Source: Chiloscyllium plagiosum
Lineage: Eukaryota
Length of the DNA stretch: 64,000 nt
Assembly: GCF_004010195.1 (NCBI RefSeq)
Contig: NC_057756.1
Location: 4,634,504 to 4,698,503 of the forward strand
Direction of reading: 5' to 3'
Shown: positions 540 through 62,714 of the stretch, piece by piece
Layout of the letters: the number at the start of each line of letters is the position of its first letter
Position numbering within the stretch: the stretch's first letter is position 1
Program-made: the position numbers and the translations under genes
Notes under the pieces: generated by a model
What the model was told of the DNA's origin: nothing
Database searches by the model: none
The model's input: only the letters and a program-made list of their open reading frames with translations

Positions 540-1441
540 TTATGTTTGAAATGTAGTTTTACAAATTAACAGAGGTGTTAACAATTTTTTAAACTCTTCT
601 CTGAATCTACGTTGAGTTGTAGCATAAATGCATGTGTTGGTACAGCAGCTCAAAAGCAGTAGCATATATCCAACTTCTTGCACTATAAAGATTGGATCAT
701 CATAGCCTGAATAATAATAAGTATTCGAGATTCGATAGTACAGAAAATGGACAGTGAACGTCATCCATAACATAATAAAGCTTCCAGATATTGTGAAAAG
801 TAGAACAATTGATTTTTTGCGGTTTTGTCTTTCTAAATCGTTGTGCCTTGCTGGATTATTATTGTGACAGAGAGCTTGGCGGGATTTATTTGCAACAACA
901 ATACATCTTACTGTCAGTCCATTTAATAGCAGAATCAGAACGAATGGGAGGAATGGAGTTGTGACACAATTAAATGCTGAATATATAATCCACAATGTCG
1001 CACTGTAGAAATTAGACTTCGTGTGGCAGTACCAGGGCACCCCACTTATTACATAGAGTGGCTCAAATTTAAAGTACCAGGGAATATTTTGCAAATAGCA
1101 TAGAAAAAATATTGTCCACACCACAATGGTTGCAATTTTCCTTGTACAGTATTTCCGTTTAAACTTCTGGAAACAGATAGTCACAAAGCGATCAAAAGTG
1201 AAAGAGACAGTCAACCAAACAGAAAAGTCCCTGGATGCATAAGTTAAGGCAATTTTGAGACTGCATATTGGAGTCAATGACATAAAGCTACTTGAGAAGT
1301 AAATATTAATAATTCTATTTAGTATCACTCCAGTAATTATAACAAGTAGATCCGCCACTGCCATGCCGATAAGATAATAAGTGATGCATTTTGAGAGGCC
1401 ACACTTGCCTCGTGACAGGATGACAATCCCCACAACGTTAG
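540..1441 (-). CDS. GPR139/GPR142-like orphan class A GPCR, coding exon 2 (end of TM1 to stop)
   Basis: Acceptor ttttttcag-like (cttttt-cag, AG at 1443-1442), phase 1, reads (A)NVVGIVILSRGKCGLS... to TAA at 540. Hydrophobic segments through TM7 with MAVADLL (TM2), FTFDRF (DRY variant), Cys in TM3 (PICSL) and ECL2 (WYCH), PFLPF (TM5), NTCIY (NPxxY variant). Confidence 0.93.
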
Positions 1442-2394
1442 CTGAAAAAGAATTATTGCATAAAAGTGATCATACTCAAATATTCTGTGTAAAATCTGGT
1501 ACTATCTATGTGATACCTAACTAAGGTAACTAACAATAGTATGCTTCTCTTGAATCAGATCAATGTAGACCAACTACACATGAACATATACTGGAGTATT
1601 AATAGAGAGTTAAACGCTTGAAAGCCAAGTGTTGGTCATAAAACTGTGAACGTGACATTGTGTTAAAAAGACTATAAAATCCGTAAAGGGCATAAAAAAG
1701 GTATTCTTAATTTTTTAATGCAGAAGTGATTTGTGGCACTTGCAGTGAAAATTGTTAACACTAACATAAATGCATTTCATGTGTATGGCAGCATTTTCTT
1801 CCAGATCTCACTTTACAAATATGATCTTGAAGTTTAGGAAAGAGTTATTTCAATCATATCTCATTTAGAATCATCATTGACTGTTTTTTGTACGACTTTT
1901 GTACCCATACATGAGGAATGGAGTTTCTCCCGTGGTTGTGCATTTTGCCAAAGTTACATACCATGATTAACGTGCCACATAAAATTACTCCATTCAATGG
2001 CAGTGGGATTTAACAAACTTTGAGATGAATAGGTTTATGTGCGTCGCATATTACTTGAAAAACCACCTGATAAATATTAATGGTTTGAATGGTGTATTTC
2101 AGTAAACTTGTCGCAGCAGAAATGTACAGAAAAATTTTAAACTATTATTTACGCAACCAGGGTTTCAAACTTGAAGGAGAATGCTGATAGGCTTGACTAT
2201 TTTCATTGGAAAGGACAACAATGTTGAAGAACACATACGAGTTGCAAAATTCCTGGTATGCCAGTAAAAATAGAAAGAAAGTTTCCAATTGCTTTGTAAT
2301 TAAAAAATATAAACATACATAGATGTAAAACATACATCGATGTAAAGTAATTTGTAACAGTTGATTTATGTTTTTTTTCACTCAGTTGGTGATG

Positions 2395-37222: not shown

Positions 37223-37359
37223 NNNNNNNNNNNNNNNNNNNNNNNNNNNNNNNNNNNNNNNNNNNNNNNNNNNNNNNNNNNNNNNNNNNNNNNNNNNNNN
37301 NNNNNNNNNNNNNNNNNNNNNNNNNNNNNNNNNNNNNNNNNNNNNNNNNNNNNNNNNNN
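37223..37359. other. Assembly gap (137 N)
   Basis: Run of N. Confidence 1.
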
Positions 37360-42946: not shown

Positions 42947-43976
42947 AATGCACAGTTAGTACATCTTGCTAAACGTTTGGTTCTAATTATGTTTCCACAA
43001 TAATAGTCTATGTTTTATTGTTGGCATTGCAGAAATACACCGAAAAGGCAAACAATTTCTGGCAAAGAAGGCAGTGTTCATTCTCATTAAACATGTGCTG
43101 CATTTTAAAAATCTATACTCTCATAGCGTGGGGTAGAAATTCCAATCAATCCTGACCACTGACATGAAAGCATTTATATTGATATAAATGAAACAAAGTT
43201 GACATTGAACATAACATTTGGATCTTTTTGTAATGAACAAATAATGGAAACTCGCAAATACACATCGCTGCCATCATATGATGAGTGATAACTTAGCAAA
43301 TAGCGGGTGAAGAAGATAATACTGACTACCTTGTGGCAAAGGCCAAGCTGATGTTACGAATAGGCGTTAGAAATTGAAATTAACAATCATTACTGTTGCA
43401 AAGTATAACCCAATTGTGTTGAACACCAGATGAGAATGTCACGCAACATGCGACTTGCGTTGCACTTTGGATGGAAAAGTCTTCCTATAGATCATGTAGG
43501 ATTGCAGCAATGCTTCAGAGCACTTCCTAATTTAATTTGAATCTTCTGGGTTCTTGGTTGTGCCGAGAGATGATACGGGGCCATAATTTCTGCTTGTGAA
43601 TTCCGTGCAGTACAATTCATATTCAAGAGCAGAAACATGAACAAGACATCAATAGGCGCATTCTTTTATCTCCCCACTGACAACACAATTTAATGTGACT
43701 GCTCCAGATGTTTCGAACTGTCAACGACAAGCATTTAATTATTATTCAGTGTCAGCCAAATTTCGATTAACATGATGTTGAATAATCTCCAGGAGATGCC
43801 TATTGCATAGGAAATATACGTGTTTATTTCAAACTTCTCCATTTCGATTAGATTCGCATTCTACCTGCAAAAGAAATGGAAGACTGACTAAGGTCTAAGA
43901 GAATCACGGCAGTTATATTACATTGCAAATTTTCAGAATGCAGCCTTTCTAATATTGAGATCAAACACTCACTTAC

Positions 43977-44095
43977 CAGCACAAAGGCTATTTTCTCAGT
44001 ATTCCTTTTTACGTGCAAGAAAATTTTGATTAACGTCGCCCACGCAAGTGTAATTGCTGCGAAAATTAGTGGGGACGTATAGGACATACTATTTT
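43977..44095 (-). CDS. Orphan transmembrane-like exon (NSMSYTSPLIFAAITLAWATLIKIFLHVKRNTEKIAFVL)
   Basis: Perfect donor CTG|GTAAGT; 19-aa hydrophobic run followed by HVKR. Acceptor uncertain (GAG at 44096 or TAG at 44089). Confidence 0.4.
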
Positions 44096-53873: not shown

Positions 53874-53940
53874 CAGTGAGTCCATTCATTTTCACGACCA
53901 CATAGTCTTCAAATTCCACAGAAATGTTATCTCATGATTT
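53874..53940 (-). pseudogene. Candidate cytoplasmic exon with in-frame TGA (KS*DNISVEFEDYVVVKMNGLT)
   Basis: Acceptor ttccttgataccag, donor CTG|GTATAT, phase 0 to 1 in the tyrosine-containing frame. Confidence 0.33.
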
Positions 53941-54036
53941 CTGGTATCAAGGAATACTGAATTCATGGTGCCATATTTCCAAGTTAATTACCACATACAA
54001 CAAATGGACAAACGTTCAACGAGGCTACACCCTACA

Positions 54037-55078
54037 ACGAGGCAGGTCGTGCCTCACAAACCTTGTTGAATTCTTTGAGAAGGTGCCTAAGGAATTGGAC
54101 GAGGGTAAAGCGGTAGATGTGGTGTATTTGAATTTTAGTAAGGCGTTTGATAAGGTTCCCCATGGTAGGCTCCTGCAAAAAATACGGACGTATGGCATTG
54201 AGGGTGAGTTGGAGGTTTGGATTAGGAATTGGCTGGCTGGAAGAAGAGGGTAGTAGTTGATGGTAAAGGTTCATCTTGGAGTGCAGTTACTAGCGGTGTT
54301 CCGCAAGGATCTGTTTTGGGACCATTGCTGTTTGTCATTTTTATAAATGACCTGGAGGAGATGGCTAAAAGGTTGGGTCAACAAGTTTGCGGATGATACG
54401 AAAATCGGTGGAGTTGTTGACAGTGAGGAAGGATGTGTCAGGTTACAGCGGGATATAGATAAGCTGCAGAGCTGGGCAGAAAGGTGGCAAATGGAGTTCA
54501 ACGTAGGTAAGTGTGAGGTGCTTCACTTTGGTAAGAGTAACAAAAAGATGGGGTACTGGGCTAATGGTCGATTACTTGGTAGTGTGGATGAGCAGAGGGA
54601 TCTTGGTGTCCATGTACACAGATCTCTGAAAGTTGCCACCCAGGTAAATAGTGCGGTGAAGAAGGCATATGGCGTACTGGCTTTTATTTGTAGAGGAATT
54701 GAATTCTGGAGTCCTGAGGTCATGTTGCAGTTGTATAAGACTCTGGTGCGGATGCATCTGGAGTATTGTGTGCAGTTTTGGTCGCCATACCATAGGAAGG
54801 ATGTGGAGGCACTGGAACGGGTGCAGAGGAGGTTTACCAGGATTGGTAGGTATAGGACAGATGTTAGGGGTAGATTCTTTACTCAGCGAGTCGTGAGTTC
54901 ATTGAATGTCCTGCCAGTAGCAGTGGTGGACTCTCCCTCTTTATGGGCATTTAAACGGGCATTGGATAGGCATGTGGAAGATAGTGGGCTAGTGTAGGTT
55001 AGGTGGGCTTGGATCGGCGCAACATCGAGGGCCAAAGGGCCTGTACTGCGCTGTATTTTTCTATGTTTCTATGTTTCT
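54037..55078 (+). mobile_element. CR1/HER1 LINE, 5'-truncated, young, with internal deletion
   Basis: [43 protein letters not shown]; tail ttctatgtttctatgtttcta. Confidence 0.97.
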
Positions 55079-55625
55079 AAACCCTCTGTTGAAGAGTAAA
55101 TCATCTACCTTGATAGGATGTTATCATTTGAAATCAAGTAGTGATTGTTAAATTATTGCTTACATATCGACGTTAGTCGGGTTATAATTGAAAAATATTC
55201 CAGCAGCAAATTTTGAACAAGTTTTCATTTAGGACAGGAAATCGGCTCAGCCAACATCAAATAATTTGGATGTCAGTTTACCTTAAATAAATAGCACACT
55301 AATATTATCCACACCTCTTCAAGTGAGCTAAATTGTCTAATTATGAACAAATAAGATGATTTAAAATGTACACAATGATGCAAGCGTTCATTGATTTTTT
55401 TTTTACAAATTGTAATCTGAAACGTCCATATTCAATCTTATCAGATTGTTGATAGGGTGTAAATTAGACAGATATCTATGATGCTGTGAAACCACAAATA
55501 TAGTTATATCATGCTGAAAGAGATATTGGTTACTGCCATTGCACAGCCAGTTTTACTCTAAACATATTACTGCTATGCATGACCAACCAGTACTAATAAA
55601 AAGAATATTATCACTTACCTTTCTT

Positions 55626-55747
55626 CTAGAGGGCGACACATTTTTTTTTGATAATGAGAATGACTGTTCCCAACACTGCTATACAAGAAACCACGGCGAT
55701 TATTGTAAACACGTTGTACGAGATCCGACATTCCAAACTGTCTTCAC
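55626..55747 (-). CDS. CD2/SLAM/CEACAM-type Ig receptor, exon 4: stalk, TM and short tail (GEDSLECRISYNVFTIIAVVSCIAVLGTVILIIKKKCVAL*)
   Basis: Acceptor gtcatatag, phase 1; 21-aa TM then KKK; TAG at 55628-55626; exon runs on to donor AAG|GTAAGT after 55619. Confidence 0.88.
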
Positions 55748-56672
55748 CTATATGACAATCAGAATCAATAGTCAAACAGAAGCAATATGTTTTCTCAATA
55801 TTAAATACATTCAAGAAGCACTGTTGACCAATGTTAACGGTCAATAATTATGATGCATTTCAAACAATTTTATGTCTCGACTGAGCCAAACACTAAGAGA
55901 AAATACCGCTTGTGTCTCTCCTTTAACTGAAATACAATTGGTCATCTCCTCAGGCTTTGATTAAGATTAAGAATTTCCAAATTCAGAATAATTTTTTTTT
56001 CGTTATTCAAATAGTTTAATTTCAAAAGTCAAATCCGATCTATTTGAAATGGTCTATTAATTTGTTACCAACCTTGGATCCGGTCTCATACGAAAGCAAA
56101 TTGCTCCAAACTCATACCTATCATAATTGTACCTTCAGTAAAAAAGAATTCTGTTGAAAAATCAATTGTCTATCATTCTCTCTACAAAAGCACAAGCGAA
56201 ACAAATTATTTTTAAAATCAACATGTTATTTTCTGTTCTCTTAACTTCACTTAATTCTCCGAAACTTGTTATTGTTGGCAAGGTCGGCCTCTACCAGACT
56301 TCCAAAGATATTATGAGCAAATGTTAGTGTTTCTTCTAGGCCATGAGTATTTTCGTGTTACAATTCGGCCATTTTGCTGCATGAGTGCATTTTCTGGCCG
56401 GTACTGGATACTCGCACCATCTTCTGCTGAAGAAACCCTTACCTCCGTCAGCTGAGGCCTACAAAAATCTAAAAGTATTATCTGTGTTAGTTTTAATATG
56501 TGAGGTCCACGTGCCAAATGTTTTAGATACTGCAAATTTTAATTCTATGTTCTGAGCGTTCTTTTTAAGATGCTTCATGTAAAAAGCATTACATATTGCG
56601 TTCCATGCATAAAGTATCATTCTTCTGCCACAAATTCAACAAGGTACCTCACAAACATTAGTTAATACTTAC

Positions 56673-56939
56673 CCACTAGTGTCCGTGAAGTTTCTCTTTG
56701 GTTGATGCTGTTTCGAACTGTGCATTTGTAAGTTCCACAGTCCACGTTGGTAAAGTTTTGAATGTATAAGCTACTATTGTCTTTTGTTAATATAAACCTA
56801 AGGTTTGATGGCAGCTCTTGGTTGTTCTTCTGCCAGGAATACTGAGGAAATGTCCCTTCACTAATTTTACAAAACAGCACCAGGGCATGTTCAGTCAAGT
56901 CATCTTGGTAAATGGCAATTTTAGGAGAAGACACTGGAA
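56673..56939 (-). CDS. Ig receptor exon 3: IgC2 domain
   Basis: ttattttgcag|...G|GTAAGT, 267 nt, phase 1-1. VPVSSPKI..LVLFC..GTFPQYSWQKN..DNSSLYI..DCGTYKCTVRNSIN. Confidence 0.95.
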
Positions 56940-58489
56940 CTGCAAAATAAAAACAATTCATCTTTCAATCACTTAGCTTTCTCCTCGATTGTAAGCCGAG
57001 TATTTATCAATGATATTTTTTCAGTAGCAGATAACAAAGTGGACATTCCCTTATTTCACTTTAGTTAGCAGAGATATATTGTACAACACTTGTAAAAACG
57101 AGTCAATGCTTAAATATTTATTACATTTCAAAATACAAATTCAAGATTAAGAACAACCAAGGTTGTTGTTAACAATTATATCATGAGTGGAACAAAAGCA
57201 ATCGGTGGATGTTTCTGCTCACGAATTTGCATGTGCGCTCTGGATCAATCCAATGATTCGTTTAACCAAATTTAATGAATGAAAAAAGTTATAATTCCTC
57301 GACTTAGAGCCAGGGCAGTGCTAAATATCCAGTGGCAACCTTTTTTTTTGAGTGGTGTGGTGACATGACAGGCAAATTTGGTGCAGCCGAGTTTCAGTCA
57401 CCTTCTGACACTTTTTGGCAAATGTCGTTGCACCTCTGAGCAATTTGAACACTGGGGCAATATTACGTTTGTGCATCAAACTTTTATATTTTATGGTTTA
57501 TTGGAGCAATTGAAGTCTCCATTCAAGTTATGAGCGGAGAATATGGTAACACTGCAAATAAGCACCAAAACTTGCAGTTGCCGTTCCTGGTTATCCTTCA
57601 AGTGACATTTCCAAACTTCCACTAAAAAAATAATGAAATATGTTCATGCAAGTGTTTGCAAATTATTTCAAAACGTGTTTATTCTCAGATGTCAATCAAC
57701 ATTCTAGGAATATTTACTTAGGCTTGACGGCCTGTGGTTTGCAATGAATGACAGAAGCACATAACAGTTAGGGGACAGAAAAAGTGTATTGACTCCTCAA
57801 TAACACATGAACGCATAAAGCTTTATAGCATCGTGCTCACGTTTTTTTTTAAATATAATCCTGCATTTTTTTTGCTTGTTGTCGTCAGAATTTATACTTC
57901 ACTGCCTCAAATTCATTGCCGTCAGCCTTCTTTCAATCACTACTCCTCGTGTATATGTCTATTTCTTCCACTCAGTTTTCCTACTTTTACAAATCGTTTT
58001 ATAACTGTGCTATATAGTTCGCAATCTGTTTAAAAATGGGATTGTTTAACCGAATCCATCCTGTTCAGATCCTTATTGATTGAAATACTTTGTCAAATTT
58101 CCTTTTAACCTTCAATTCTTCAAGAGAAACAGTTCAAACTGCTCTGAATATTCTTCACAGATGAACTGTCTCATTCCTTTTCTTTCCTGTATTCATTTCT
58201 GTCCTGTATTCACACCTTTCCCACAATGTGCACTCCCCCCCCCCCCCCCCCCCACCAGCACAGTGCACAATACTGAAACTGAAACTTAAATAACATCGTT
58301 TGTATGCCCGTGACCATCTGACTGTTTTTATTCGACATAGTCCTATTTATAAAGCCAAAAATACAGATCACTCATCTCGATCTTTCCTGTGATTTATAAT
58401 AAATATCCAGATCTATCCAACGCTAGATGTAATTTGCAACACTGATTTTATTTAATGCCATTTCTCCACGCTCTTTTTACCGAATTGCA

Positions 58490-59047
58490 ACACTGAGAAA
58501 AACAGACCATGAGCTAGCAGTTGCCTGCATCTTTAATGTATCACCCTGTTCCCTGGCCAACATCTCTGTCTCAGGCTTGCTGCAGTCCTCCAGCAAAGCT
58601 CAGCGCTTGCTGGAAGAACAACATCTCATTTCCTCTGGGGGACCCTCTAGCCCTCTGGACTCAATATTGAGTTCAATAATTTTAGCGTCTGAAATCCCTG
58701 AAGTCCTGGCCCCCTATCACATACACCAAGCCTTGTTATCACATAGATTGCGATTACACACTACCCATTGTTCGCGACTAGCAGTCTCCATTAAAAGCTA
58801 TTCAGCCTCCCAGCCAGAGCATTGTCGACTCCGTTGACTGTCCAACTGTTCTTCCCTCTCTTTGGTGTCTATCCATTCCGATCCTTACACCACCCCCAAC
58901 AATATTTTCTGCACGTTACTCTAAATTATCCTTGCTATCATTAATTCTGAGGAATGGTCACAGGACCTTAAATATTAACTTTGATTTCTCTTCACAGATG
59001 CTGCCAGACCTGCTGAGTTTTTCCAGCAGCACTTTTTTGTTTCTGAA
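58490..59047 (+). mobile_element. Penelope 3' end (family 3) in intron 2 of the Ig receptor
   Basis: AVACIFN..PCSLANISVSGLLQSSSKAQRLLEEQHLI (GIY-YIG C-terminal part); degenerate hammerhead-like CTGAGGA near 58947. Confidence 0.75.
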
Positions 59048-59429
59048 ACACCGAATTTCTTTGCATTGAACATCATCTGCCAGCTCACCACCCACAACTA
59101 AAATATATCAGGCTTCTTCCCATTTCACAGTTGCCATAGACTTGCATCATCCGTAAGTTATGAAGTTGTCAACTTTGCAGGAACAACACTAAGGTTGCGT
59201 GCTTAACTGTGGATGTGGCAGGAATAAAACAAAGACATTATGTGCGAGCTGAAATTGAATCTCTGCAGAAACATGAGATGGTCCTACAAATCATTGGTAT
59301 TGTTAACATGCATGATGCTAACAGGTTCTGTACTTTCATATCCATGAGTTTGAGAATTGATTTCGGAACTCTTGAAAATTATCAGAAGTATCACCTTCCA
59401 TTTCGTCAAAAGAACATATAATTACTTAC

Positions 59430-59741
59430 CAGAAATAGCTAAATAGACAGATTGAAGTTTTGTGAGGCCATCAACTGCTACTGTGGTTACTTGATAGAAG
59501 CCAATGTCCTCGACTTGTAGATTTAAAAGTTTTAGGGAGCAATCAGGGAAGCATTCCACACGGTCTTTATGTCTCCCGAATTTTTTGCAAGGACCATTCT
59601 TTGAGCAGGTTATGAATCTTTGCTTGTCCTTATCCCAGGTGATTTTCGTTACTATTCCTTCTTGCTGAATCGTTAATAAAACTGACTTACCCCGGATTCC
59701 AGTCACGTTGGTTTCTCTTGCTCTTAATGTAAGTTGATCTG
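59430..59741 (-). CDS. Ig receptor exon 2: N-terminal IgV domain lacking the canonical B-F disulfide
   Basis: ttttactgcag|...G|GTAAGT, 312 nt, phase 1-1. NVTGIRGKSVLL..ITWDK..RVECFPDCSLKLLNLQVEDIGFYQV..VYLAIS. Confidence 0.95.
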
Positions 59742-60704
59742 CTGCAGTAAAATAAAACGCGATGATTTAGCATCTCCCACTTCAATTGCTCCACGTTTTC
59801 CAAAGTTAGTTTGACTTACGTCCCACTTTCACTCCCTAATTTTTTTTGAACTTTCTGCGTCCCTTTCTCTGTTATGGACACTTATGAATAATTAATTCCT
59901 GATCAAAACTTTTTTTTTGTTTTTGATTGTTCATTCTTCTATGTCAACAGCGTTATTTTCTCTATTATTAGACTTCTTTGCAACGTTTGGGGGCTGTTTA
60001 ATGTAATGCGGAGTTAATGTTCACTCAGCTCGATTTTCCCATAGAATTTCGTAAATCTTCCACTCCAATTTTTTTCACACCTTTTATGCATTCTCGCCCA
60101 GAATGAGCCAGGCTATTGTGTGTTCAATTACAAAAGACAACAAATCATATTATTCATGCCACCACTCCGCCTGCAACATTGAGCATGTTCTTTTCATATT
60201 TTATATTGTTATTCCAAACCTTTGGCCATGATTGTTCCAAATTTCACGACGAGTACAGTTGCATAATGCACAACTAATCACAAAACAGTAAGCTTACTAT
60301 TTCAAGAGGTACTCATTTGGGTCTCGAAAAAAATGGAACTGAATCAGTAGATCAGTCATGAGAGAATTGTATAGCTCGCATCAGAGATTGGTTGAGTGGC
60401 ACAAATCTCTAATTTTCTATATTCCACCTCCTGTGTTACAGGAACCATTCACAAAATTGCAAACGAAATCTGAAATAACTACAAAAATTAGACAGACATC
60501 CGAATCACATACGGTAACTTCGCAAAATATCATCTTTGAAGTATTAAACTTTGAAGTAATATGATTCAACGTTTTTTTTAGATTTCTTTTTCTTTCAAAC
60601 AGTGCATTACCAATCTGTGTACTTGAATACACGAAAATACAAAGCATTTTCTTTTTATCGCAAAGGTTTTGTGCTCTTCATTTTGTTATGAATTCTCCCA
60701 GAAG

Positions 60705-60890
60705 AAAGTGAGGACTGCAGATGGTGCAGCTCGGAGTCGAAAAGTGTGGTACTGGAAAAGCACAGCCCCTCAGACAGTATCCAAGGAGCAGGAGGGTCGA
60801 CGTTTCGAGCTCATGCTGGAAATGTTGACTCGCCTGCTCCTCGGATGCTGCATGACCGGCTGTGCTTTTACAGCACCATACTTTTCGACT
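60705..60890. mobile_element. Fold-back Penelope-derived short element (family 1)
   Basis: agtcgaaaagtgtggtactggaaaagcacagc is mirrored by gctgtgcttttacagcaccatacttttcgact. Confidence 0.7.
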
Positions 60891-61255
60891 ACGTATTCTC
60901 CTGTCAGTGGATGTTTTTATGTCATTCATTTAGTCAACGAAAACTTTGACGATAACTCTCCATTTTTCCCTCCATTCTTGCACAGTTTCGTTTATTATAC
61001 ACTTCATATAACTGAATGTCTTTATCACTTTCTCTTATGGTTCAACTACTTCGCCCCTGCATCAATGCATGCATTTATATTTTCGTATCCGCTGCTCAGA
61101 TGTGAGGCACTATTATTTAGTAACCAGCGAATTAACGATTAGGAAAGTTGAACGAACTTTAAGGCTTATTTTCTATTTTCAATTTCTCTCATGAAACCAA
61201 GAATGATATATTTGTAAATGCTTCAAAGCCTTCTATGCTATTGTAACAGATATAG

Positions 61256-61312
61256 TGGTGGCACGATGGCTCAGTGGTTAGCACTGCTGCCTTATGGCCC
61301 CAGGTTCGATTC
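61256..61312 (+). mobile_element. HE1 SINE tRNA-like head fragment
   Basis: tggctcagtggttagcactgctgcc...ggttcgattcc. Confidence 0.7.
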
Positions 61313-61905
61313 CTACTAAATGGTTGTTTCTGGAAAACAATACCTCGAAATTGGCATGGTAATATTTAGTGCCAAATAATGAAGCAATTAAATTTTGGAG
61401 ATCAATCTTGTGTAATATCCAAAGTGAACTTCGCAAAGCTGTCCATGCTCACTCAAATACATATTAGCGAACATCGTTTTAAGATGCAGAATTAGCGGTT
61501 AGCCTTTGCTTCTACACATTGCATTAATTTTATGCTTTACAAAACCTTTCTGTTCCAACTCGTGAAAACTTGTTTCCAGTCAGATTTGCATATGGCTCGC
61601 ATTGTGGTAGAACATGTGCCACTGAGTACAGCTAAACGGTCTTTGAGCGGTCACTTGACACTGGCCGGATGCAATTATGACGTTCTTTGTGCTGTGATAC
61701 ATTACGTTTATCATGGTTTTGGGTCAAGGTAATAAAAAAATCCTGCATAATGGATTTGTCTTTACTCTCTGATCTGATCTGTTTTTTGAGGCAAGCACTC
61801 ATGCAAACATGGTTTCTATATAGAGCAGCTGAGGTAATCGGAGCAGTTTTCCTTCATTATGCACTTGTGAGACAGATTTTTTTTTAAAATACGAACATTT
61901 TCTGA

Positions 61906-62107
61906 TTTGGAGATGCCGGTGTTGGACTGGGGTATACAAAGTTAAAAATCACACAACTCCAGGTTATAGTCCAACAGGTTTAATTTGAAGCACACTAGCT
62001 TTCCGAGCATCGCTCCTTCATCAGGTGATAGCTGATGAGGACGCTCCGAAAGCTAGTGTGCTTCCAATTAAATCTGTTGGACTATGACCTGGTGTTGTGT
62101 GATTTTT
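61906..62107. mobile_element. About 200-bp fold-back element (family 2) with two opposite-strand hammerhead cores
   Basis: AACATTTTCTGA at 61894-61905 and 62108-62119; minus core 61993-62027, plus core 62032-62055. Confidence 0.88.
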
Positions 62108-62541
62108 AACATTTTCTGAAATTAACTATGTCACGTGCTTTCTACTTTTCATCCGTATTGAGACAAACCTCTGGAGCATTAAGCTTTGGCCTGTAAATTC
62201 TGTGTCAAAAGTGCAGTGACGACTACTGACCACTCAATCATATCATACAAATGATCGTTTCTAGTTTTCTGTTTGCGATTCTGTTTTTTTAATTGCGCCA
62301 GAAACAATGGTAAAAATTGAAACGATCACATATTCCCACCAACCTTAACTTTGTTGCTACAAAACCAGTCAAATGTCAAACACCTAGCCATCAACTCTCA
62401 GAACTGAAAGTTAAATATTGTTATCCCATGTTTCCGAGGTTCATTGATGCCCAGTAATCATACCAATTGAACTTTTTTGGTGAATATTGACTTGTGTTTC
62501 AACTTCTATTTACCAATCATGGATTGAATTATAGGTCTTAC

Positions 62542-62605
62542 CCCTGAGGACAAGTTGACACAGAAGTATCTTGAAAAGCGGAGTCATTTTTCTGGACAAC
62601 ATCAT
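62542..62605 (-). CDS. Ig receptor exon 1: signal peptide (MMLSRKMTPLFKILLCQLVLR)
   Basis: 64 nt, donor GGG|GTAAGA, phase 1; joins exon 2 as ...LVLRA-DQLTL. Four exons total 765 nt = 254 aa plus stop. Confidence 0.78.
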
Positions 62606-62714
62606 ACACACACTCCCGATGCAAAAACGTGAATACAACATGAACGCTCAATAGCTTGTGTCTTTCGCTTAGCAGACCAGTGCTAATTCTAGTGAGAATT
62701 GATATCAGCAGCAG

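Follow-up and report, generated by a model that had tools for sequence, protein, structure and literature searches.

A single-copy shark and ray V–C2 immunoglobulin receptor with four additional V-domain cysteines and a lost tail exon

A spliced V–C2 receptor gene in the bamboo shark window

The 64,000-nucleotide (nt) stretch of Chiloscyllium plagiosum contig NC_057756.1 analysed here (positions 4,634,504 to 4,698,503; the window) carries on its minus strand a spliced gene of four exons (Table 1). It encodes a protein of 254 amino acids (aa) with a leader peptide, two immunoglobulin (Ig) domains, a stalk and a transmembrane (TM) segment, and ends at a TAG at 55628–55626. All introns are bounded by AG and GTAAG and lie in phase 1. 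Pfam assigns exon 2 to the V-set (31.4 bits; cut-off 26) and exon 3 to I-set/Ig_3, which is C2-like. Cysteines occur at residues 16, 67, 73, 85, 89, 149, 193, 198, 221, 236 and 251, and N-glycosylation sequons at NVT33, NSS180 and NFT187. The V domain lacks cysteine at its B- and F-strand positions and has four others instead (Cys67, Cys73, Cys85 and Cys89). The C2 domain has an additional cysteine (Cys193) five residues ahead of its F-strand cysteine, and the stalk contributes Cys221.

A preliminary description of this DNA, made from the letters alone, had proposed much of this. Splicing reproduced its four exons and canonical phase-1 sites, its account of the V, C2 and stalk cysteines and its three sequons, and the ectodomain that it had called free of lesions is intact in all three exons and at every splice site. 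It did not mention the conserved TM cysteine at 236, and it overlooked the tail exon downstream. Its 254-aa product is likewise reproduced by splicing, but the C-terminus of that product is probably not the usual one, the 9-A run in exon 4 differing in length elsewhere.

The database model XP_043539270 (C. plagiosum, ‘coxsackievirus and adenovirus receptor-like’) is identical to the 254-aa protein except at its start, which it places at an in-frame ATG at 62641, 12 codons upstream. Orthologue starts fall near the second ATG (62605), and the upstream start is without orthologue backing. Close to the start of the mature protein, the exon 2 acceptor is a tandem NAGNAG (59741/59738) that toggles an alanine at the likely signal-peptide cleavage site.

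Table 1. Features of the receptor gene and its tail region, in window coordinates.
Feature	Position	Strand	Details
Exon 1, leader peptide	62605–62542	−	64 nt; ATG 62605
Exon 2, V-type Ig domain	59741–59430	−	312 nt; Cys codons 59607, 59589, 59553, 59541; invariant Trp, Arg, Asp
Exon 3, C2/I-type Ig domain	56939–56673	−	267 nt; canonical Cys pair and extra Cys codon 56739
Exon 4, stalk and TM	55747–55619	−	129 nt; stalk Cys codon 55730, conserved Cys in the TM helix, basic residues for stop-transfer, GTAAG donor intact
9-A run and in-exon TAG	55626–55649	−	run length differs in other data
Candidate remnant of a middle tail exon	43977–44056	−	80 nt, AG...GTAAGT; weakly supported
Dead remnant of the last exon of the ancestral tail	43721–43864	−	intact acceptor; polyA-like hexamers at 43694, 43536, 43019

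The V-domain cysteines are conserved in sharks and rays

We collected orthologues from a full scan of 1.84 billion representative proteins and from word-index protein searches. The latter gave just 2, 2 and 5 proteins and missed orthologues that the full scan recovered, so absence from other sharks or from bony fish is not inferable from them. The orthologues found come from both sharks and rays: Heptranchias, Pristis and Hemitrygon are full-length, and Carcharodon (great white) is represented by a partial model. V-domain identity to the three full-length proteins is 61/103, 47/102 and 37/103 (36–59%). Nevertheless, cysteine stands at 9/9 of the ectodomain and TM positions checked in all three, including the four of the V domain; conservation at this level of identity argues that the pattern is not due to chance. 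The loop between Cys67 and Cys73 ranges from 4 to 6 residues among orthologues, and such variable length fits a hairpin closed by a bond.

Among the domains compared, the pattern is confined to this gene and its orthologues. A CxxxC-S-L motif was present in 8 of 79 V-like domains among the profile matches, all eight belonging to this gene or its orthologues, and the V-cysteine pattern occurred in 0/12 other V exons of this genome (one of them partial). The V exon matches only itself in the genome, and family profiles run over the window and 800 kb of flanks (~860 kb in all) found no tandem or sister copy, with CEACAM-type exons only further off. Judged by sequence, the four V-domain cysteines alone mark a shark and ray orthologue group, which is conserved and previously undescribed. 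Retention of the cysteines had been put forward as one check on the preliminary description, and those of the V domain are retained in the orthologues. The suggestion of a shark-specific family gave way, by contrast, to one gene per genome that is present in rays too and whose V cysteines its paralogues lack. That description had recognized no characterized gene, and we likewise saw no characterized orthologue among the matches found.

The orthologues carry divergent automatic labels (LSAMP-like, IGSF10-like, CEACAM1-like, HEPACAM-like and uncharacterized). The accessible text of PMC3628338, PMC4079198, PMC5112662, PMC13278318, PMC11646291, PMC12084948 and the CXCL17 preprint (bioRxiv 10.64898/2026.03.04.709523) treats cartilaginous-fish CEACAMs in general and not this gene, and a literature search that omitted most subscription papers returned nothing on it. 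One Hemitrygon isoform, X2 (P0024), skips the TM exon; it would be secreted, with the extra C2 cysteine lacking its stalk partner.

The C2, stalk and TM cysteines are shared with a wider family

The cysteine pattern had been called unusual as a whole. This stands for the four V-domain cysteines but not for those of the C2 domain and stalk, which are not out of the ordinary and are not confined to sharks. Of the 21 other C2 exons examined from this genome, 12 have the extra C2 cysteine; it occurs together with the stalk and TM cysteines in Mustelus, sturgeons and bichirs, and a coelacanth fragment has it as well. Cys193 and Cys221 co-occur in 8/8 full-length relatives aligned, and the TM cysteine is conserved in 8/8 full-length relatives. 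Cysteine-less V domains with other extra-cysteine patterns near C′, C′′ and D were also seen (P0128, P0138 and P0026), including a frog CEACAM-like protein. Additional cysteines on cysteine-less V domains thus recur, as in the frog CEACAM N domain, and are not a new mechanism.

Predicted structure and disulfide pairing

AlphaFold2 (AF2) modelled the full protein as a two-domain ectodomain followed by a TM helix (predicted local distance difference test, pLDDT, 82), with the V domain at pLDDT 91. The V model puts Cys67 on strand C′ and Cys89 ahead of E, with Cys73 immediately preceding C′′ and Cys85 ending D, and these confident models agree with the earlier placement of the cysteines at a C′–C′′ hairpin and a D–E turn. 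In such a geometry, a Cys67–Cys73 bond would close the C′–C′′ hairpin and a Cys85–Cys89 bond the D–E turn, which together would substitute for the missing B–F bond. Cys193 would pair with Cys221 and tie the C2 domain to the membrane-proximal stalk; this bond would be an old family trait and would do the job done in SLAM proteins by a second C2 disulfide. If real, the two V disulfides represent a natural route to stabilizing a disulfide-free V domain.

The cysteines could also pair otherwise: bonds could span the sandwich (C′ to D or E, C′′ to D) and join its two sheets, or the stalk or TM cysteine could link two chains into a covalent dimer. All four share one open edge of the sandwich in the AF2 model, the Carcharodon model keeps only three of them (Cys67, Cys85 and Cys89), the TM cysteine is conserved throughout the full-length relatives, and a C′–D bond is known from CD28 and CTLA-4. 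By contrast, the spacings (i,i+5 to i+7 and i,i+4) suit local hairpin closure, both new V pairs arise together on one branch, and, since the C2 and stalk cysteines co-occur, the extracellular cysteines number eight, an even total. We regard alternative pairing as doubtful. A homodimer prediction for residues 35–226 scored 0.00 and carries no verdict.

Relationship to the SLAM/CD2, CEACAM and HEPACAM families

The preliminary assignment to a CD2/SLAM/CEACAM-type architecture was borne out by both sequence matches and structure searches. The top rows of the structure search were CD2 (Z 16.1, root-mean-square deviation 4.1, 161 residues aligned) and NTB-A (Z 15.8), and fold searches tie CD2, NTB-A, CD48, CD58, TIGIT, nectins and CEACAMs, families that are not separable in this way. 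The best sequence matches in the PDB were the CEACAM15 N domain (E 6e-4) and CEA/CEACAM1, and the best named Atlas clusters were CEACAM; the score of multi-domain CEA is inflated by its repeats.

We built trees from the V plus C2 domains of 29 rows, and of 27 after removal of two long rows, with no named mammalian CD2 or SLAM sequence among them. The orthologues formed a clade (support 99/99 with 29 rows and 100/99 with 27) whose sister group was a Mustelus protein together with the corresponding gene on contig C36 (93/89 and 93/87) and that sat among HEPACAM/SLAM-like rows with a single V and a single C2 domain. A clade of the orthologues with six genes from a cluster on contig C37 was neither shown nor rejected (approximately unbiased test, p-AU 0.12).

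Like SLAM, CD2, CD58 and CD48, the shark and ray gene has a V domain without the canonical disulfide, followed by a C2 domain and a TM segment, and that group includes short-tailed members. It differs from SLAM and CD2 in its four extra V cysteines, in the tyrosine-based switch motif of immunoreceptors (ITSM; TxYxxV/I), which occurs in 0/6 of the relatives' tails and in none of the tails predicted here, and in having no proline-rich CD2-type tail. Its second C2 pair consists of the pre-F-strand cysteine and the stalk cysteine on the TM exon, so that four available C2 cysteines are reached only with the stalk counted, whereas the SLAM pair uses an A′-strand cysteine. The accessible text of PMC12084948 gives SLAMF8 and SLAMF9 as short-tailed members, and SLAMF2, SLAMF8 and SLAMF9 as lacking an ITSM.

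With CEACAMs the gene shares a cysteine-less N domain with an Arg–Asp salt bridge, a CEACAM feature described in the accessible part of PMC4079198, together with its best sequence matches and, probably, long and short tails by way of a frame-shifting exon; it also lies in the same chromosome region as LIPE. It departs from them in lacking A–B domain repeats, in lying outside the CEACAM cluster, in standing apart in the trees and in its extra cysteines. The closest relatives, at 30–34% identity, are unnamed ‘HEPACAM-like’ V–C2 receptors from sharks as well as sturgeon, bichir and coelacanth (P0087, P0107, P0124, P0127 and P0129, with the C36 gene and the C37 cluster), for which we found no described function. 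They have the same extra C2, stalk and TM cysteines and a two-tyrosine tail, but every one of the four V cysteines is absent from them. CXADR has the same V, C2 and TM layout but, unlike our gene, has the canonical V disulfide and a long tail; the CXADR-like label of XP_043539270 is an automatic best match. One-to-one orthology to HEPACAM, HEPACAM2 or CXADR was considered and set aside: distinct genes on contigs C35 and C5, which we take from their motifs to be HEPACAM-like and HEPACAM2-like, fall outside the orthologue clade, and the CXADR-type V disulfide is absent.

A different origin would make the gene a strongly diverged CEACAM, an N domain and one A-type domain that departed from the cluster beside LIPE. 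The CEACAM sequence and Atlas matches point in this direction, as do the comparable logic of long and short tails and the location: CEACAM-like A–B exons, a CEACAM5-like gene and LIPE lie at distances of 0.23, 0.39 and 0.55 Mb, with XRCC1 on the same contig. The salt-bridge pair (Arg60/Asp78 of the V exon) also counts for it, being invariant in 14/14 rows, among them non-CEACAM rows. Against this origin, a clade of the orthologues with CEACAMs was weakly rejected (p-AU 0.040 with 29 rows and 0.029 with 27), contig C36 carries the nearest paralogue, the CEACAM genes are reached only past four or more unrelated genes (seven-transmembrane (7TM), cobalamin-binding, claudin-like and GPR15), and the repeat-inflated CEA score and the tied structure searches do not single CEACAM out. 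A CEACAM ancestry is unlikely. The gene would work like the CD2/SLAM and CEACAM families, and we assign it to neither. The orthologue group and the wider set of shark V–C2 receptors (the C37 cluster and the C36, C8 and C29 genes) are mislabelled in databases, and these receptors could help to clarify the divergence of the CD2/SLAM, HEPACAM and CEACAM families.

The last exon of the ancestral tyrosine tail is dead in this genome

The TAG that ends the reference protein lies 7 nt ahead of the intact exon 4 donor and downstream of the 9-A run (55641–55649). In run X4, which has the same species label and comes from a different sample, there is one extra base in the A run; in run X13, from a related species, there is a 2-nt loss and a substitution (a single contig supports each). 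X4 and X13 stay open up to the donor in one common frame, which makes it phase 2, and the exon 4 ends of the two are set apart by one synonymous base and a single whole codon. In X4 both the V exon and the C2 exon are intact, with three substitutions, none at a cysteine. Because both are open in the same shifted frame, the reference stop is likely to be a homopolymer error or a rare allele. A frame with one A fewer, which would restore a phase-1 tail, was dropped, as the other data show the +1 frame. The C-terminus is consequently uncertain, yet the tail predicted from sequence is short in each reading tested (7–30 aa): 7 aa in the reference, and in the X4 frame 10 aa (by read-through or by splicing to 43864) or 30 aa.

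Tails of relatives (Heptranchias X1, Pristis, Mustelus, sturgeon and bichir) are ~90–200 residues long and contain tyrosines. A remnant of their last tail exon lies 11.8 kb downstream of exon 4. It aligns over 47 ungapped codons with its stop positioned as in Heptranchias, and it has three in-frame stops and has lost both motif tyrosines. Its DNA match scored 56.2, against a best of 33.2 in 100 shuffles, with 56 of 88 fixed bases identical; at the protein level only, the match is weaker and was equalled by 3/100 and 4/300 shuffles. A candidate middle exon lies between the two. Within a 300-nt window, 21/1000 shuffles matched the Heptranchias tail DNA as well as it did; a search for a middle exon across the whole 11.7 kb gave no signal above shuffles (59/60 scored as high), and at the protein level the candidate does not resemble relatives.

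How short tails might have arisen is suggested by rays. The short tail of the stingray aligns, in a shifted frame, with the last exon of the sawfish, with 13 of 17 codons matching compared with 4–6 at six other offsets, which suggests that long and short forms are made by skipping a frame-shifting exon. The 53-bp exon 7 of CEACAM1 is frame-shifting and gives long and short tails in this way, according to the accessible text of PMC11646291.

Splicing X4 exon 4 through the candidate middle exon (44056–43977) of the reference would give the 30-aa tail. This predicted tail, a combination of X4 exon 4 with reference downstream exons, contains the hexamer SNYTCV, which resembles an immunoreceptor tyrosine-based inhibitory motif (ITIM), and its stop falls 19 nt before the last junction; motifs of this sort were present in 76 of 1570 random open stretches. 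A bolder scenario has both ends of the receptor rebuilt: the four-cysteine V brace would have been gained, the two-tyrosine last exon would have passed into the 3′ untranslated region in this shark lineage, and a one-base frameshift in the TM exon would have recruited SNYTCV from another frame of the old middle exon, yielding a new 30-residue inhibitory tail that would escape nonsense-mediated decay. We consider this a long shot. The history of the tail shows on a small scale how a signalling motif can be lost from a receptor and perhaps acquired anew.

A probable short-tailed adhesion receptor

Taken together, the observed gene structure, cysteine conservation, fold, single copy and dead last exon lead us to the following reading, to which we assign a probability of roughly 60%: the gene encodes an intact, single-copy type I membrane glycoprotein of sharks and rays with a V and a C2 domain, whose four extra V cysteines likely form two disulfides that brace the open edge of the domain, and which, having lost its ancestral tyrosine tail exon in this genome, is likely a short-tailed adhesion or ligand partner. 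By analogy with CD2, SLAM and CEACAM proteins, the GFCC′C′′ face of the V domain would engage a partner of the same size on another cell. Signalling in the ancestor would have run through two tyrosines of the tail, and a short tail would result from skipping of the frame-shifting middle exon, in the manner of CEACAM1-L and CEACAM1-S. With only short tails left in this lineage, the role would resemble that of CD58, itself a short-tailed form, of SLAMF8 and SLAMF9 or of CEACAM1-S.

Several observations weigh against this reading. The common open edge of the V cysteines would allow cross-pairing, and the missing Cys73 of the Carcharodon model leaves an odd cysteine over. Deep nodes of the trees are unstarred. 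An X4-frame tail could bear the ITIM-like hexamer, which would make the protein a signalling receptor. Two single-cell RNA runs over 55150–59800 gave repeat reads or none and no exon reads, with just 2% and 6% of the runs read, hence no test.

It is improbable that the gene is decaying in this lineage, its tail having died first and the exon 4 stop being a real null allele: the reference does have that stop, placed 87 nt ahead of the last junction should the downstream exons be spliced, as well as three stops in the last exon and no exon reads in the small RNA sample, but the ectodomain is intact in its three exons, as is every splice site, X4 and X13 share one open frame with a whole-codon and a synonymous difference, and X13 differs less in the V-exon region (17/768 bases) than in a mostly intronic piece (113/~2300). 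The gene is a real, conserved and undescribed form of a well-known receptor architecture.

Genomic neighbourhood and paralogous loci

The gene (4.690–4.697 Mb on its contig, C47) is preceded by a SPRY gene at 4.577 Mb and a 7TM gene at 4.635 Mb, and followed by a 7TM gene at 4.730 Mb, a cobalamin-binding gene at 4.78 Mb, a claudin-like gene at 4.82–4.84 Mb, GPR15 at 4.89 Mb, CEACAM-like A–B exons at 4.92 Mb, a CEACAM5-like gene at 5.09–5.13 Mb, LIPE at 5.24–5.26 Mb and XRCC1 at 9.33 Mb, 4.6 Mb from our gene. LIPE and XRCC1 serve as CEACAM-locus markers in fish (accessible text of PMC3628338), and in the catshark a CEACAM5-like gene adjoins lipeb (likewise from the available part of the CXCL17 preprint). 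TMEM145, another CEACAM synteny marker, was not found on the contig. Markers of the SLAM/CD2 region were uninformative, nicastrin being on an unplaced contig and PEX19 not found.

The claudin-like gene (L039–L041), which we presume to resemble CLDND1, and GPR15 (L047) occupy 4.82–4.89 Mb, between our gene and the CEACAM5-like/LIPE block; their human counterparts are on a different chromosome from CEACAM. The cobalamin-binding exons are of a eukaryotic protein (4.77–4.78 Mb, L035–L036). Two intronless 7tm_1 open reading frames of similar type flank the receptor gene (window 543–1469, minus strand; L031:1880–2845, plus strand).

Among paralogous loci, contig C37 has a cluster of at least nine C2 exons at 23.07–32.75 Mb (L109, L112–L114, L117, L119–L121 and L125), of which seven have the extra C2 cysteine and six a cysteine-less V exon no more than 10 kb away; on its sequence features this is a candidate shark SLAM/CD2-like cluster. 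The closest paralogue, on C36 at 37.393–37.401 Mb (L126 and L127), has its leader exon twice, 181 nt apart, a V exon that seems to shift frame near its end and no TM exon match, and may be broken or misassembled. A further C2 exon with the extra cysteine is located on C47 at 10.52 Mb (L108), with no V exon in the 10 kb upstream. Within the window, there is a 137-N run at 37223–37359, and just downstream of exon 4 lies a broken reverse transcriptase fragment (53906–54994), presumably LINE-type by its motifs.

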